DNA of 64,000 bases from Escherichia phage Phi1. A program made the position numbers and the translations under genes. The stretch lies in sequence record EF437941. One strand, given 5' to 3'. The notes under the pieces were generated by a model, which saw only the letters and a program-made list of their open reading frames with translations, was not told where the DNA came from and did no database searches. Shown here one piece after another: positions 1,877 to 55,579 of the stretch (positions are counted from its first letter, which is position 1; every line of letters begins with the position of its first letter).

Positions 1877-3676
1877 ATGCTAATGTTTAATAACTCCGTT
1901 AAATGGTTTACCGGAATTGTAGAAAACAGGGAAGACCCATTAATGCTGGGGCGTGTTCAGGTTAGGATTCATGGTATACATCCCTCGCTATCCGCACACG
2001 GTGACATTCAAGGTCTTCCAACCGAAGATCTATTATGGATTACGCCAGTACAAGATATTACAAGCGCGGCGATCTCCGGTATAGGTCAAAGCCCTACTGG
2101 TATTGTTGAAGGTTCAATGGTATTTGGTTTGGCTTTAGATGAACGTTATTTAAACTGCGTTATTCTGGGTACTATTGCCGGACAATATACAGAGAAACCA
2201 CTCACTACAGAGGGTTTTTGCGACCCTTCTGGTGCATATCCTCGTTATATTGGTAATGATGTTAATATTCTTGCTCGTGGCGGTATTAACCCAGAAACCG
2301 GACAAACAACAAAACCTGATAGTGTCTATATTCGAGATGAAAACACTGGAGTTGCAGTAAATCCAGACGACGAGCCATTAGACCAAATTCCGGTTGATGA
2401 TAATCCTGATTTTACAATCGAAAAAATGCTGCGGGGCGATGAGGGATATCGCGAGAAATGGTATCTTGATTCAGAAGGATATCCGACAATAGGCATCGGG
2501 CATTTGATCATTTATAAGAAAACCAGTGATCTGGGTATTATCAATAATGAACTTTCTAAGCTGGTAGGGCGTGAAGTTACAAACGGAAGACTTACCGCCG
2601 AAGAAGTTAGTAAAGTATTTGCCGACGATATAGAAAAGACTCGTCGTGATATGCGCAAACATCCACGAATTGCACCTGTCTATAATAAATGTAATGCCTC
2701 ACGTCGTATGGCATTAGAAAATATGGCGTTTCAAATGGGTGTTGGTGGATTGGGTAAATTTAAGAATAGTCTTGCTGCGATGTTAGCGGAAGAATGGAAA
2801 CAAGCCTATGATGGATTACGTCAATCGGTATGGGCTAACCAAACTCCAGGACGCTCCAGCCGTGTTTCTAAAATTATTTTAACTGGTAACTTAGAATCAT
2901 ATGGCGTAATTGCTCCAAAGAAAGAGGAATCAATTTCTGATGATCCGCGAGCACGTTTGAGAAATGCCCGTATTGCTGCCTATAAGACGCAGAGAGCAGA
3001 AGAAGACCCAGAAGCACCGTTTACCCCACAAGACACACGAATCATGTTTAAAGAGCCTAAGAGTTCGTATTCCGCAAGGTATCCATATAACCATGTGTAC
3101 GAGTCAGAGAGCGGTCATATTATCGAGATTGATGATACTCCTTCTCATGAGCGATATCATCGTAAACATCCTTCGGGTACATTTGAAGAAACCAGACCGG
3201 ACGGAACGAGGGTAGAAAAGATTGAAGGTGATGATTATCTAATCGTTAAACAAGGCAGGAAAGTAAACGTTAAGGGTAATTTGCAAGTTGTTGTTGAAGG
3301 TGACGCGCAAGTTTATTATATGGGTAATGTGATGCAAACCGTTGATGGTAACGTCACTGAATTTATTCGTGGTAATGTTAATCAGACCGTTGAGGGTACA
3401 GCTAATATGCATGTTGTAGGTGATGTTACCGCTCAGCTTGACGCTAATTTAACGGCTAATGTCAAGGGTAATGCTGAATTAATGATCGAGGGTAACACTA
3501 CAGAGACAATTAAAGGTAACTATGATTTAACCGTTGAGGGTAATTTTAATATGACCGTCAATGGCACTAAATCAGATCAGGTTAATGGTGACTGGTCCCG
3601 TAATTGTGGTGCAAGCGTTAAAGATATTGCATCTGGTACAGTTAAAATTGATGGTAGCCGTATTGATCTTGGGTGA
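1877..3676 (+). CDS. 5: baseplate hub subunit and tail lysozyme gp5
   Basis: 599 aa; T4-lysozyme-like motif YLDSEGYPTIGIGH; C-terminal VxGxxxxx beta-helix repeats; synteny. Confidence 0.9.
   Translation: MLMFNNSVKWFTGIVENREDPLMLGRVQVRIHGIHPSLSAHGDIQGLPTEDLLWITPVQDITSAAISGIGQSPTGIVEGSMVFGLALDERYLNCVILGTIAGQYTEKPLTTEGFCDPSGAYPRYIGNDVNILARGGINPETGQTTKPDSVYIRDENTGVAVNPDDEPLDQIPVDDNPDFTIEKMLRGDEGYREKWYLDSEGYPTIGIGHLIIYKKTSDLGIINNELSKLVGREVTNGRLTAEEVSKVFADDIEKTRRDMRKHPRIAPVYNKCNASRRMALENMAFQMGVGGLGKFKNSLAAMLAEEWKQAYDGLRQSVWANQTPGRSSRVSKIILTGNLESYGVIAPKKEESISDDPRARLRNARIAAYKTQRAEEDPEAPFTPQDTRIMFKEPKSSYSARYPYNHVYESESGHIIEIDDTPSHERYHRKHPSGTFEETRPDGTRVEKIEGDDYLIVKQGRKVNVKGNLQVVVEGDAQVYYMGNVMQTVDGNVTEFIRGNVNQTVEGTANMHVVGDVTAQLDANLTANVKGNAELMIEGNTTETIKGNYDLTVEGNFNMTVNGTKSDQVNGDWSRNCGASVKDIASGTVKIDGSRIDLG
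3290..3640 (+). repeat. gp5 C-terminal beta-helix coding repeats
   Basis: Translated repeats of the form V-E/D-G-N-x-x-x-T/N (VEGDAQVYY, VDGNVTEF, VEGTANMH, VKGNAELM, IEGNTTET, VEGNFNMT, VNGTKSDQ). Confidence 0.8.
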
Positions 3677-12051: not shown

Positions 12052-12077
12052 AGCCGTCCTTGTGGGCGGCTTTTTTG
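12052..12077 (+). terminator. rho-independent terminator after the methyltransferase
   Basis: Hairpin AGCCGTCC-loop-GGGCGGCT followed by TTTTTT. Confidence 0.6.
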
Positions 12078-12086
12078 TATGTATTT

Positions 12087-32934: not shown

Positions 32935-34176
32935 ATGACTCATATTTTTACTGAACTGTTGCGGGAATCTACTTCCTCAGTAGCTAACCAGACAGCGCGA
33001 CCGCAACTATTATCATTAACTCGCGCGGTAAACAACCTGATTTTCTCTGATCTGGTAGCGATCCAGCCAACGGATCAACCAGTATCTGCATTGTACGGCC
33101 TACGTTATCTTAATCATGATGGTCAGATGACTTTCCGAACTGCTGCAACCTACGGTGGAGCGGTTGGTGATCGCACAGAGATTGAAGAGTTTTCAAAAGA
33201 AAAATCTTATGACGAAGGCGCACTATTCAAATCAGGCGATGTTGTATACGAAGTTGTGACCGCTGGTACAGTCGGTGAAGATGCCGCAACTCCAGAAGCT
33301 GCGATCTTTAAAGGCGTAATGACAAACAAAATTCGTTTCTATAGCGATTGTGCATCGGTAGAATACTTTGAAGATAAAAACACCGAAATTGCGTCTACCT
33401 CTATGCAGTTTGACAAGTGGCAAGTTAATGTAGGTTCTCGTAAACTGAAAACCTCGTTCACCACTGAATTAATGCAGGATCTTGAGGCAAGCCAAATCAA
33501 CTCTGAAAACTCTGTAATTGATCTTCTGGCTACTGTTGCTTCCGAAGAGATCAACAAAGATATTATTCAGAAGTTGATCACTGTATCATCTCGCTATAAA
33601 ATTAAAGGGATCACCCCTGATGGCGTACTTTCTCTCGTTAGCGTTCAGGATGCACCAACACAAGCGCGTGAACTTTACCGCTATGCTTGCGAGATGAGCA
33701 ATCAAATGTTGCGGACTTCCTCCTTTGCTGGTACATACGTTTTGGCGTCTTCTCGCGTGGTTGGCCTCCTGCAATCTTCCGGTTGGATGGAAGAAACCGA
33801 CAATGCTCTAAGCGAAGGTCGTCTACGTTGCGGTCTGGAAGTGTACGCAGACACGACAACACCTTTCGATTATATGCTCGTTGGTTGTAAGCACATGATC
33901 GGTGATATGGAGAGTGTAGGTTCTCTGTTCTACTCCCCATATACAGAAGCCGACGGCGCTGGCGCGTATAAGAGTGTAATTGACCCTAATAGCTTCCAGC
34001 ATCATGTAGCTATTATGAATCGTTATTCACTCTCTGTCAACCCATACACATCAAAAGTTGATCAGGAAGAACACCAGGTCATCAAGGGTGACGATTGGGG
34101 TAAAATGGCTGGACGTTCAGAAATGTCCTACATTTTAGGAATCGAACTGCCACCGCTTGAGATTGACAACGCTTAA
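32935..34176 (+). CDS. 24: head vertex protein gp24
   Basis: Start moved from the track TTG (32887) to ATG at 32935; N-terminus ...ELLREST... resembles T4 gp24. Confidence 0.85.
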   Translation: MTHIFTELLRESTSSVANQTARPQLLSLTRAVNNLIFSDLVAIQPTDQPVSALYGLRYLNHDGQMTFRTAATYGGAVGDRTEIEEFSKEKSYDEGALFKSGDVVYEVVTAGTVGEDAATPEAAIFKGVMTNKIRFYSDCASVEYFEDKNTEIASTSMQFDKWQVNVGSRKLKTSFTTELMQDLEASQINSENSVIDLLATVASEEINKDIIQKLITVSSRYKIKGITPDGVLSLVSVQDAPTQARELYRYACEMSNQMLRTSSFAGTYVLASSRVVGLLQSSGWMEETDNALSEGRLRCGLEVYADTTTPFDYMLVGCKHMIGDMESVGSLFYSPYTEADGAGAYKSVIDPNSFQHHVAIMNRYSLSVNPYTSKVDQEEHQVIKGDDWGKMAGRSEMSYILGIELPPLEIDNA

Positions 34177-34764
34177 CTAAATATCTAACCAAGACAAGTC
34201 AGATCCGCCCAAGATTTTTTCGACGGCGGATCTATTTTCTTGATGATATAAGTTAAAACATGGTATCCCATGTCTACGGGCAACATAAACAGCAATTCGA
34301 GTTCCTCCCGAAACGATTCCATTAACTTCTTTCGCCCAGAATATCACACAATCTACAGGATCATCAAGTGTCTCACCTAAGACTTGAGCAACATTTCTAG
34401 AAAACAGATTTTGCATGTATAACGGTATAGAACGAGGATTATCATAAACGTGTTCTAATTCATCCATCGCCAGATTTTTTTGTTCTAAGGTTTGCCATGC
34501 AATCACATCATGACCGTTATGCTTGTGGTCATAAAACTTCCAATTTGGAATGAAAATTTTTCTATAATCTGGATCGTAATACTTCATGAAAGCATTGTCC
34601 ATACCGTAAGCCCCTCCAGAATGCGCTACAACGCGATTTTCTGACAATACCCTCCCAATGGTACTAGCCATTATCAAAATGTCGCTAGGCGCTTTTCTAG
34701 AGCCGATTAAAGCACATCTACGAAGTGGTTTTACTCCAAATAGATCTTGTAACTGGTCAAACAT
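34177..34764 (-). CDS. DprA/Smf-like SLOG-family Rossmann-fold protein
   Basis: 195 aa; GSRKAP...VVAHSGGAYGMDNAF resembles the GSR...SGGAxGxD signature of DprA/SLOG proteins; RBS GGAGGA; stop codon abuts the gene 24 stop. Confidence 0.5.
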   Translation of the reverse strand: MFDQLQDLFGVKPLRRCALIGSRKAPSDILIMASTIGRVLSENRVVAHSGGAYGMDNAFMKYYDPDYRKIFIPNWKFYDHKHNGHDVIAWQTLEQKNLAMDELEHVYDNPRSIPLYMQNLFSRNVAQVLGETLDDPVDCVIFWAKEVNGIVSGGTRIAVYVARRHGIPCFNLYHQENRSAVEKILGGSDLSWLDI

Positions 34765-34916
34765 AATATTTCCTCCATAGAAAGCAATATCATACTACAA
34801 GTTAATAACAAATACAAGTATCCGCGTAGCGGAAGCGAGCACAGCGAGCAATAAAACACTTCCAGTAATTGATTAATAAATGTTCGAAACAAATTTTTAT
34901 TATTCTATAAGATAAG

Positions 34917-34942
34917 TCTTCGTTTTGATCATAATTTAATCA
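34917..34942. repeat. 26-bp direct repeat, copy A
   Basis: TCTTCGTTTTGATCATAATTTAATCA; identical copy 149 bp away in an ORF-free region. Confidence 0.8.
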
Positions 34943-35065
34943 TACATGTAAAAACTACACAAAAGGATATCGCTTCGCGAACTCCTACGGAGTATAACAT
35001 TTGTGTTACAATATGTAGTGATTAATAATTAACCAAAGATACATTTTCTATGTTCTAAAGATCTT

Positions 35066-35091
35066 TCTTCGTTTTGATCATAATTTAATCA
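35066..35091. repeat. 26-bp direct repeat, copy B
   Basis: Identical to copy A; on the + strand copy B reads TTGATC, 17 bp, TATTAA (promoter-like). Confidence 0.8.
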
Positions 35092-35143
35092 AACAGTATT
35101 AATATTGTGCACATGTAAACTAAAATTATGTTAATAACAGATA

Positions 35144-35169
35144 CAAAAAAGCCGCCCCAAAGGACGGCT
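35144..35169 (-). terminator. rho-independent terminator (- strand) after the 145-aa gene
   Basis: On the - strand: AGCCGTCC-TTTG-GGGCGGCT followed by TTTTTT. Confidence 0.65.
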
Positions 35170-35177
35170 AATGTTAA

Positions 35178-35615
35178 TTATTTGTTGATAACGATCTGAT
35201 TTCGGCGAATGGTAACATTACTCTTAGAGATGATCAGATCATCCGGCACTACGTTAGTTTTGTATGGTTGGAAGCGAACAAGCATCTGATTGCGTTTAGA
35301 CCCTTCCTTAATCTTGATTTCCATCTGGATATTGTTGCCTACGTGAGCAACCGCAATTTCACCTTTATTCTCATAGACCCACTTGCTGGTAACGTCTCCA
35401 GCAAAAGCCTTAATAACTTGCAATGCTTCGTCGTATGCGGTAGAGCTGTGAACTTTCAGAAGGCCAGCCGTAGCAAGACGTGAGCAGGTGATCGCCGGAG
35501 ATTGCCAAACATCAACATTAATTTGCTCAATCAGAGTAACACCGCCCTGATCAACTGCTTTAAATGCTTCGAACATTGCCTTTTTCATTGCTACGTGGTT
35601 TTTACGGAATTTCAT
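35178..35615 (-). CDS. hypothetical protein (145 aa)
   Basis: ATG with RBS GAGGTGA; no recognised motif. Confidence 0.55.
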   Translation of the reverse strand: MKFRKNHVAMKKAMFEAFKAVDQGGVTLIEQINVDVWQSPAITCSRLATAGLLKVHSSTAYDEALQVIKAFAGDVTSKWVYENKGEIAVAHVGNNIQMEIKIKEGSKRNQMLVRFQPYKTNVVPDDLIISKSNVTIRRNQIVINK

Positions 35616-35661: not shown

Positions 35662-35937
35662 TCAGGACATTGCCCGTTTGAATGCGTCCATTATAACAGT
35701 GTTATTTGGCTTGTCAACACGTTTTTGAACTTTATTTTTAAATTTTTTGTTGATGTGGTGTTTACGATAAACAACCTTTTCACGGTTGGCGTAAGCCTCG
35801 CGTGCGTCTTTTACCATCAACCATGCCTTAGCCGCATCTTGTCCGCTGATCCCGCCAATCTTCTTAGCAATATCAACAAAATTAAGACCGTGGTCTTCGC
35901 GTAGCATGTAAACCATTAACGCTGTTTTCTTGTCCAT
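35662..35937 (-). CDS. putative helix-turn-helix DNA-binding protein (91 aa)
   Basis: Internal ATG of the 127-aa track ORF that overlaps the stop of the upstream membrane-protein ORF; HTH-like segment ALMVYMLREDHGLNFVDIAKKIGGISGQDAAKAW. Confidence 0.4.
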   Translation of the reverse strand: MDKKTALMVYMLREDHGLNFVDIAKKIGGISGQDAAKAWLMVKDAREAYANREKVVYRKHHINKKFKNKVQKRVDKPNNTVIMDAFKRAMS

Positions 35938-36293: not shown

Positions 36294-36324
36294 AAAAACA
36301 AAAAAGCCACCCCGAAGGATGGCT
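36294..36324 (-). terminator. rho-independent terminator (- strand) after hoc
   Basis: On the - strand: AGCCATCC-TTCG-GGGTGGCT followed by TTTTTTGTTTTT. Confidence 0.65.
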
Positions 36325-55545: not shown

Positions 55546-55572
55546 ATAAAAAAGCCGACGCTAAGGTCGGCT
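55546..55572 (-). terminator. rho-independent terminator (- strand)
   Basis: On the - strand: AGCCGACC-TTAGC-GTCGGCT followed by TTTTTTATT. Confidence 0.65.
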
Positions 55573-55579
55573 AATAAAA

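Follow-up and report, generated by a model that had tools for sequence, protein, structure and literature searches.

The early genes of T4-type phages have tandem early promoters and long untranslated leaders. For phages RB49 and phi1, promoter-early stem-loop (PeSL) cassettes have also been described, intergenic composites in which a sigma-70-type early promoter and a stretch of AT-rich sequence accompany a stem-loop terminator (Arbiol et al. 2010, PMC2839356; Comeau et al. 2014, PMC4122927). PeSLs occur as approximately 50 dispersed copies per genome, each situated directly upstream of an open reading frame (ORF), and their promoters are identical to the consensus (PMC2839356). The present analysis concerns a gap of 413 bp (positions 34765–35177) in a stretch of 64,000 nucleotides from Escherichia phage Phi1 (EF437941; referred to here as the window). 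The gap is bounded on one side by the start codon of a DprA-like gene and on the other by the stop codon of an ORF for a 145-aa protein (ORF165c of RB49), and it contains a perfect 26-bp direct repeat. It is proposed, with a probability of roughly 45 %, that the 26-mer is the best-kept core of a duplicated AT-rich unit in a conserved, locus-specific spacer, and that the units are auxiliary sigma-70-type promoters, mainly gene-sense in Phi1.

Read on the minus strand, the sense of both flanking genes, the gap contains, in order after the ORF165c stop codon, the terminator T1, unit B, the mini-hairpins H1 and H2, unit A, a GCTCGC box with hairpin H4, the putative promoter P3, a GGAGG sequence and the ATG of the DprA-like gene. 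The best reading of this spacer is as a locus-specific relation, in kind, to the PeSL cassettes of the same phage group. T1 (35144–35169, minus strand), identified in a terminator scan as the intrinsic terminator of ORF165c, is a PeSL-type stem-loop with an 8-pair stem, AGCCGTCC-TTTG-GGGCGGCT (35150–35169), and a T-run at 35144–35149. It carries a terminator annotation in the GEC-3S, G37-3, G2248 and Makalu records, and one G-C pair of its stem has become A-T in relatives through a compensatory change; the stem also includes a U-G pair workable only on the sense strand. T1 belongs to a dispersed hairpin family (AGCCRYCC-loop-GGRYGGCT plus a T-run), three more copies of which were found in the window, at 12052–12080 (plus strand), 36298–36324 (minus strand) and 55548–55575 (minus strand). 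Those three are textbook PeSL cassettes, in which the hairpin immediately precedes TTGACA-17-TATAAT, TTGACA-CATAAT or the late promoter TATAAATA, whereas T1 in the gap is followed by a degenerate GTTTACA without a proper −10 box. Further points of likeness are a cassette-type gene insertion at the locus in one relative (L026, see below) and the short repeats flanking a segment, which fit the recombination model of the PeSL paper.

The gap departs from the PeSL cassettes in several respects. T1 corresponds to the PeSL stem-loop, able to terminate or attenuate transcription and often of the form GGGG...CCCC, but H1, H2 and H4 are much smaller. PeSL promoters are identical or nearly identical to the sigma-70 consensus, whereas the best site in the gap matches 8 of 12 positions. 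Units A and B are followed by hairpins rather than by a Shine–Dalgarno sequence and an ORF start, and only the module of H4 and P3 precedes a gene. The unit is found at a single locus, with only the T1 hairpin being dispersed, and it has back-to-back promoter boxes, with weak hexamers, on one palindromic −35. With the T4-type early genes, the gap would share the stacking of several sigma-70-type promoters before one gene, with small stable hairpins between them; it differs in that its distal units are a conserved duplication with hairpin punctuation of its own, and in that the promoters are putative.

The repeated unit and its conservation

A preliminary description of this DNA had reported the perfect 26-bp repeat, 149 bp apart, in an ORF-free region between two minus-strand genes, and both observations were upheld. 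The 26-mer (TCTTCGTTTTGATCATAATTTAATCA, plus strand) lies at 34917–34942 (core A) and 35066–35091 (core B), with a start-to-start distance of 149. No third match was found in the window when up to three mismatches were allowed, and matches were obtained in 0 of 100 dinucleotide shuffles. Extended to 38 nt, the two copies are still 89 % identical, and the 149-bp register is kept by a further exact repeat, the 10-mer TGATTAATAA (34870–34879 and 35019–35028). Gapped alignment revealed a diverged duplication of approximately 95 bp, in which the identity outside the core is just 55–60 % or so. The sole ORF in the gap, of 53 aa with a TTG start and called by few annotators, was judged not to be coding because it is hit by 1-nt indels (34768, 34852 and 34864) among near-identical phages. 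Small ORFs have been annotated within 34731–34892 in FL38, Delraymugoa and SSG23, and the DprA-like gene is extended into the gap in UPWr_E1; the same indels argue that these annotations are over-calls. Micro-ORFs starting in the core (MIKTK...) were also rejected, as they lack a Shine–Dalgarno sequence and are not conserved.

The 26-mer is the core of an AT-rich unit of approximately 75–95 bp, present in the gap as two tandem copies. Unit B (35015–35092, minus strand), delimited with an nhmmer unit profile and with four-unit and multi-lineage alignments, comprises the core, a −10-like box and a 3′ arm ending in TTATTAATCAC. Unit A (34869–34943, minus strand) includes an imperfect 31-nt inverted repeat (34870–34900 and 34912–34942). 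The cores themselves, which were not assigned to a strand, each contain the palindrome TGATCA (34926–34931 in core A and 35075–35080 in core B), and core B carries on its minus strand a pair of heptamers, TGATTAA-N4-TGATCAA. Four features of the unit are constant: the core TTG ... (A/G)(T/G)CAAA(A)CG, ATTAATTATACT upstream of it, a TCT(C/T)TATA box downstream and the 3′ arm TTGG(A/T)TAAT(T/A)ATTAA(T/C)CAC.

The 2 kb around the repeat are 99–99.8 % identical to genomes of the genus Krischvirus (GEC-3S, ECD7, RB49, JSE and others). Absence of the repeat from related phages, which the preliminary description had named as part of what would count against its reading, was not observed. Two core sites are present in all 57 of the matching GenBank Krischvirus records, each of which covered at least 80 % of the 2-kb query, and the 26/38-mer occurs twice per genome; outside Krischvirus, a search of 50,697 phage records found nothing above chance for the core. 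Within GenBank, ORF165c is likewise confined to Krischvirus. It is absent from Muldoonvirus, Jiaodavirus and Gualtarvirus, in which there is no gap and the DprA-like gene lies tight behind RNA ligase 2 or small ORFs.

Relatives of ORF165c at 92, 89, 88, 69, 58 and 56 % identity were found in viral contigs, metagenomes and a large protein collection (L numbers below). All of those that reach far enough have a long ORF-free gap before the DprA-like gene. The gap is 574 nt long in L022 and 446 nt in L025, whose DprA-like proteins are 87 and 89 % identical to that of the window, and 404 nt in L029 and 326 nt in L030, where the corresponding identities are 57 and 50 %. The ORF-free gap (326–574 nt) and its tandem units thus persist at identities of 56–58 % for ORF165c, 50–57 % for the DprA-like protein and 61–72 % for gp24. 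Two tandem units were found in every relative but L028, the 69 % relative, in which positions 2948–3233 hold seemingly a single unit, then H1, H2 and directly the GCTCGC box; this assignment is provisional, as the contig ends soon after. Since L028 seems to carry one unit, the duplication is not universal. A profile of 13 units, searched with nhmmer, gave exactly two matches in the 64-kb window, units A and B, and because it finds nothing else there the unit is specific to the locus.

Variation within the genus was expressed as the fraction of variable sites per segment among 19 distinct aligned sequences. It is apparent that the hairpins (H1/H2, and H4 with its box) are invariant (0.00), with low values for P3 (0.07), for the unit parts downstream of the cores on the minus strand (0.04–0.08) and for the cores (0.08–0.12). 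The third codon positions of the flanking genes gave 0.19–0.25, and the stretches just upstream of each core on the minus strand (34943–34969 and 35092–35143) gave 0.37–0.40. Because the cores and the sequence downstream of them on the minus strand are less variable than third codon positions, they are under purifying selection.

The cores are constrained but not invariant. One copy is changed in KMB43/Delraymugoa and one in Makalu_001, and in G2248 (L006) and PHB13 (L011) both cores are mutated at the same offset (34928 and 35077; A to T and A to G), which destroys GATC in each. The latter two phages have a further change at 35081, and three of the four substitutions that they share in the gap fall inside the 52 bp of the cores. 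GATC avoidance or Dam control was considered and rejected: although G2248 and PHB13 lose both core GATCs, they have acquired another at 34527; the gap shows no enrichment of GATC, and the −35 of most relatives is free of it. The L022 version of the window's 26-mer matches it at 17–22 of the 26 positions. The perfect 26 bp are a lineage-specific state of a deeply conserved element, and not an invariant sequence.

Promoter-like sites and hairpins of the gap

The core most likely represents one palindromic −35 (TGATCA) plus the spacer for putative back-to-back sigma-70-type promoters. In the register of the window's plus strand, TTGNNN-16/17-TATAAT is perfect in both units of L022 and of L027, in unit A of L025 and in L028, the forms being TTGATT-16-TATAAT, TTGCTT-16-TATAAT, TTGATG-16/17-TATAAT and TTGCTA-17-TATAAT; L029-B has TATATT. 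In the gene-sense register, (A)TGATCA or TTGAAC-16/17-TATAAT is perfect in L028, in L029-B and in both units of L030, and L029-A has ATCAAA-18-TATAAT. Among all of the gaps, 12–13 of the 21 TATAAT hexamers are placed 16–18 bp from the core −35, on either strand. In nearly all units at least one strand bears a well-formed promoter footprint, and the sites in sister lineages reach 9–10 of 12 positions with a perfect TATAAT. On the antisense strand of L025-B, TATAAATA, the T4-type late-promoter consensus, stands where the sister lineages have TATAAT; at this site a late promoter may have arisen from one of early type.

The units of the window are the weakest of the family. On the minus strand, unit A has TGATCA (34931–34926), 18 bp and TAGAAT (34907–34902), a site spanning 34902–34931. 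Unit B has, according to the footprint table, a weak site at 35052–35080, with TGATCA (35080–35075), 17 bp and TAGAAC (35057–35052), which lacks the final T. On the plus strand, unit A has no −10, and unit B has the site that the preliminary description had proposed as a promoter antisense to the flanking genes, TTGATC (35074–35079), 17 bp and TATTAA (35097–35102). That site is present at 35074–35102 and its orthologue is well formed in sister lineages, but it matches the consensus at 8 of 12 positions, its −10 is without the critical final T, and a consensus scan did not pick it up. The earlier interpretation holds in part, in that comparison across lineages shows the 26-mer to coincide with a −35 and spacer; the plus-strand site, however, looks decayed in Phi1. 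The minus-strand −10 boxes and the sequence following them lie in constrained segments, whereas the plus-strand −10 and transcript start lie in hypervariable ones, and for this reason the minus, gene-sense strand is most likely the better promoter candidate in Phi1. The single change within the genus in the minus-strand −10 of unit A (34905, in KMB43) converts TAGAAT to TAAAAT, which still fits the consensus.

Downstream of the units lies P3 (34789–34817, minus strand), the putative proximal promoter of the DprA-like gene and the best sense-strand position weight matrix (PWM) match in the gap, with TTGTAT (34817–34812), 17 bp and TATGAT (34794–34789). Its position and spacing are kept in L022 (TTGTTT-17-TATGAT), L025 (TTGTTT-17-TATAAT) and L029 (TTGATT-17-TATAGT). 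It is followed by the Shine–Dalgarno sequence GGAGG (34776–34772) and the ATG (34764–34762) of the DprA-like gene (34762–34776 together, minus strand), with a ribosome-binding site annotated in the Makalu_001 record.

Small hairpins separate these elements. H1 (34982–34992, minus strand; CTCC-GTA-GGAG, with a GNA triloop on that strand) is invariant within the genus, and its pairing is kept across lineages (ATCC-GAA-GGAT, CATGCC-GATA-GGCATG). H2 (34970–34980, minus strand; TCGC-GAA-GCGA) has a GCGAAGC core shared without change by six lineages; its two outer pairs show compensatory changes, and 95.7 % of alignment cells are paired. For H1 and H2 together, 92.7 % of cells are paired, and controls with slid partners gave 21–56 %. 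The GCTCGC-TGT-GCTCGC box (34835–34849, minus strand) is conserved in L022, L025, L028 and L029 and has no variable sites within the genus. H4 (34821–34833, minus strand; TCCGC-TAC-GCGGA), found in the terminator scan, is terminator-like, with a T-rich tail; 100 % of its cells are paired, and L022 and L025 have one compensatory pair, G-C in place of C-G. Across these hairpins, pairing amounts to 93–100 %, as against 20–56 % with slid partners.

The preliminary description had suggested a small RNA, to be checked by structure and covariance analysis. H2 and H4 do covary, but no known RNA family was recognized, and no conserved fold was supported for the unit as a whole. The covariance models of Rfam 15 gave no match in the gap of the window or of five relatives; the best scores, on the terminator, were far below the gathering thresholds. 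A long hairpin of core and 3′ arm is strong in L029 and L030 (z −4 to −6), but as a conserved RNA structure it was rejected, being absent in L025 and L027, with no G-U strand asymmetry and no compensatory change within the genus.

From these sequence features we infer the firing of promoter-like sites in Phi1, their strand and the role of their transcripts, as follows. T1 would end the transcription of ORF165c, and units B and A, lying downstream of it, would serve as auxiliary upstream early promoters, acting ahead of the conserved proximal promoter P3. The GNA-loop hairpins H1 and H2, together with H4, would punctuate the unit transcripts, which would either continue into the DprA-like gene, giving it a long leader, or stop at the hairpins and so yield short non-coding RNAs.

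Several observations weigh against this reading. The gap of the window contains no TATAAT; its best sites match 8 of 12 positions, none reaches the usual consensus thresholds, and on the minus strand no site passes a 9-of-12 consensus scan. The PWM scores of single sites are within the range of shuffled AT-rich sequence. The positions of the −35 and −10 are conserved across lineages on both strands, but the hexamers of the window are weak and their scores are not above those of the shuffles; for this reason, it is positional conservation that carries the promoter argument. The core of unit B is still perfect even though neither strand offers a good −10, which suggests a role for the core beyond that of a −35 box. 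The core of the window matches those of L022, L025 and L027 at 14–22 of 26 positions and is no better kept there than the rest of the unit, and the distant L029 carries TTGATTAAAATATGATCAAACGTCAT, nearly the core of the window, twice. Such a pattern, with different tracts homogenized in different lineages, is indicative of mosaic or concerted evolution and not of constraint alone. The literature searched, finally, yielded no transcript data for Krischvirus.

Alternative readings of the repeat

The same positional evidence could be read on the other strand. The core would then be the −35 of plus-strand promoters firing away from the DprA-like gene. The antisense RNA so produced would extend across T1 and the 3′ end of ORF165c, and it might prevent read-through, expose the early mRNA to cleavage by RNase III or act as a primer. 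The plus-strand promoter is indeed the best-formed element of the unit family and each time the top antisense PWM match of its gap, and even the G2248 and PHB13 variants retain the TTG of its −35. In the window, however, copy B reads TATTAA and so lacks a T at −7, and a deletion of approximately 18 nt has removed the −10 of copy A. TATTAA is constant in the 19 sequences compared, yet it lies inside the hypervariable stretch 35092–35143; the segments holding the plus-strand −10 and RNA start are the ones with within-genus variation of 0.37–0.40, and between lineages they range from approximately 35 to 95 nt. No terminator was found in the plus-strand orientation, and L029-A and L030 have no plus-strand promoter. 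For Phi1, this reading is considered unlikely.

The preliminary description had also mentioned repeated protein-binding sites. The putative sites would be the TGATYAA heptamers, paired in 11-bp phase and with degenerate inverted copies in the 3′ arms, which might form an operator for the DprA-like gene or an iteron-like origin. Heptamers in this phase are strongly enriched in the window (6 versus 0.31 expected) and in L029, and the gap always accompanies ORF165c. They are, however, nearly absent from L022, L025 and L027, where ORF165c is 88–92 % identical, but present in L029, where it is 56 % identical. Because the heptamers are nearly absent where ORF165c is most similar, their distribution is the opposite of that expected for co-evolution of a protein and its site, and the heptamers were rejected as a binding site for ORF165c. 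Nor does that protein have a Pfam family or a significant Foldseek match in the PDB.

As to an origin, oriF and oriG of T4 consist of a promoter and an AT-rich unwinding element, and oriE has iterons and an untranslated RNA. The gap of Phi1 resembles these in being AT-rich and non-coding, with a d(GCGAAGC)-type mini-hairpin, repeats in both direct and inverted orientation and promoter-like elements without a protein product. It differs in that it lacks a MotA or DnaA box, has two repeats only and adjoins an ORF whose initiator-like fold is weak. The gap of the window was in fact found to contain no DnaA box, integration host factor (IHF) site, MotA box, FNR site or T4 late promoter (TATAAATA). 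Two direct copies 149 bp apart, moreover, do not form a phased iteron array, and L028 has a single unit. Protein binding, including an origin, is accordingly treated as a minority possibility.

More doubtful still is the view that the repeat is a neutral relic, either of a tandem duplication or of stacked empty PeSL cassettes left after gene loss, in which gene conversion in a highly recombinogenic phage keeps the copies similar and the 26-mer has no function. The two units of L022 are 89 % identical over 104 nt, and at 72 % overall they are more alike than are orthologous units (54–67 %), a signature of concerted evolution. The homogenized tracts differ by lineage, the cores are not invariant within the genus, and relatives outside the lineage have genes instead of a gap upstream of the DprA-like gene. 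Against neutrality, cores, unit bodies and hairpins are either invariant or 2–5 times less variable than third codon positions, and the architecture survives 40–50 % protein divergence in tightly packed genomes. Both copies are kept in all 57 Krischvirus genomes although a direct repeat of 26–38 bp invites deletion. The gap shows no trace of the genes carried by relatives; a decayed remnant of those found upstream of the DprA-like gene in other T4-like phages (RNA ligase 2 and small ORFs) was sought with tblastn, and nothing was found.

Equally improbable is a fourth reading, in which the duplicated unit would work as a promoter switch in both directions from its one palindromic −35, making short non-coding RNAs or primer RNAs for an origin.

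Neighbouring sites and meaning of the locus

The DprA-like gene (34177–34764, minus strand), of the DprA-like/SLOG type, is ORF164c of RB49; its match to PF02481 is below the cut-off and it belongs to phrog_768. ORF165c (35178–35615, minus strand) has no assigned function. To the left of the DprA-like gene is gene 24, convergent with it; upstream, 24.3 (DUF2774) and hoc are encoded on the minus strand. A perfect TTGACA-16-TATAAT with an extended −10 TG is situated at 35690–35717 (minus strand), inside the 3′ end of the DUF2774/24.3 ORF (35662–35937) and 75 nt upstream of the start of ORF165c; it is probably an early promoter, embedded in coding sequence, that drives ORF165c. A second site, TTGACA-17-CATAAT (11 of 12 positions; 34012–34040, minus strand), is found just past the DprA-like gene, within the 3′ end of gene 24 and in antisense orientation to that gene; it may be due to chance or be an antisense promoter against a late gene. 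An inflection of GC skew at the locus was dismissed, as it tracks gene orientation only.

Two relatives have additional sequence at the locus. In L026 (2996–3810), two ORFs are inserted exactly between ORF165c and T1. The first contains a CapR/treble-clef zinc-finger domain (PF21817, E 3e-7), and the second a VYVFG...KYGIT motif with a T5orf172/GIY-YIG-like look. The insertion is apparently a mobile nuclease gene preceded by a terminator of its own; it is as expected for a hot spot of cassette shuffling, and was counted in favour of the promoter-unit reading. In L022 (2270–2440), the leader between P3 and the DprA-like gene is longer by approximately 190 nt and contains a long hairpin (GATACCCTAAAA...TTTTAGAGGGTAT); the product of that gene has a different N-terminus (MSDYISQLDQ...).

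Since T4-type genomes are tightly packed, a gene-free spacer of 330–570 nt that survives 40–50 % protein divergence is unlikely to be idle. To our knowledge, the replication origins of RB49-type phages are unmapped. A 2010 review of post-transcriptional control in T4 stated that no trans-acting small RNA had been functionally characterized in that phage, and that its relatives might supply candidates (PMC3014915). The locus described here is a compact candidate for a small RNA or a replication origin. Should the units be merely stacked, weak auxiliary promoters, it would be an ordinary regulatory region. If the bidirectional switch were true, the locus would be the first conserved non-coding RNA or origin locus recognized by comparative genomics in RB49-type phages, possibly acting with ORF165c. 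At a minimum, the locus illustrates the evolution of promoter–terminator cassettes, by duplication, by concerted evolution and by a change in the strand that bears the promoter about a common palindromic −35.
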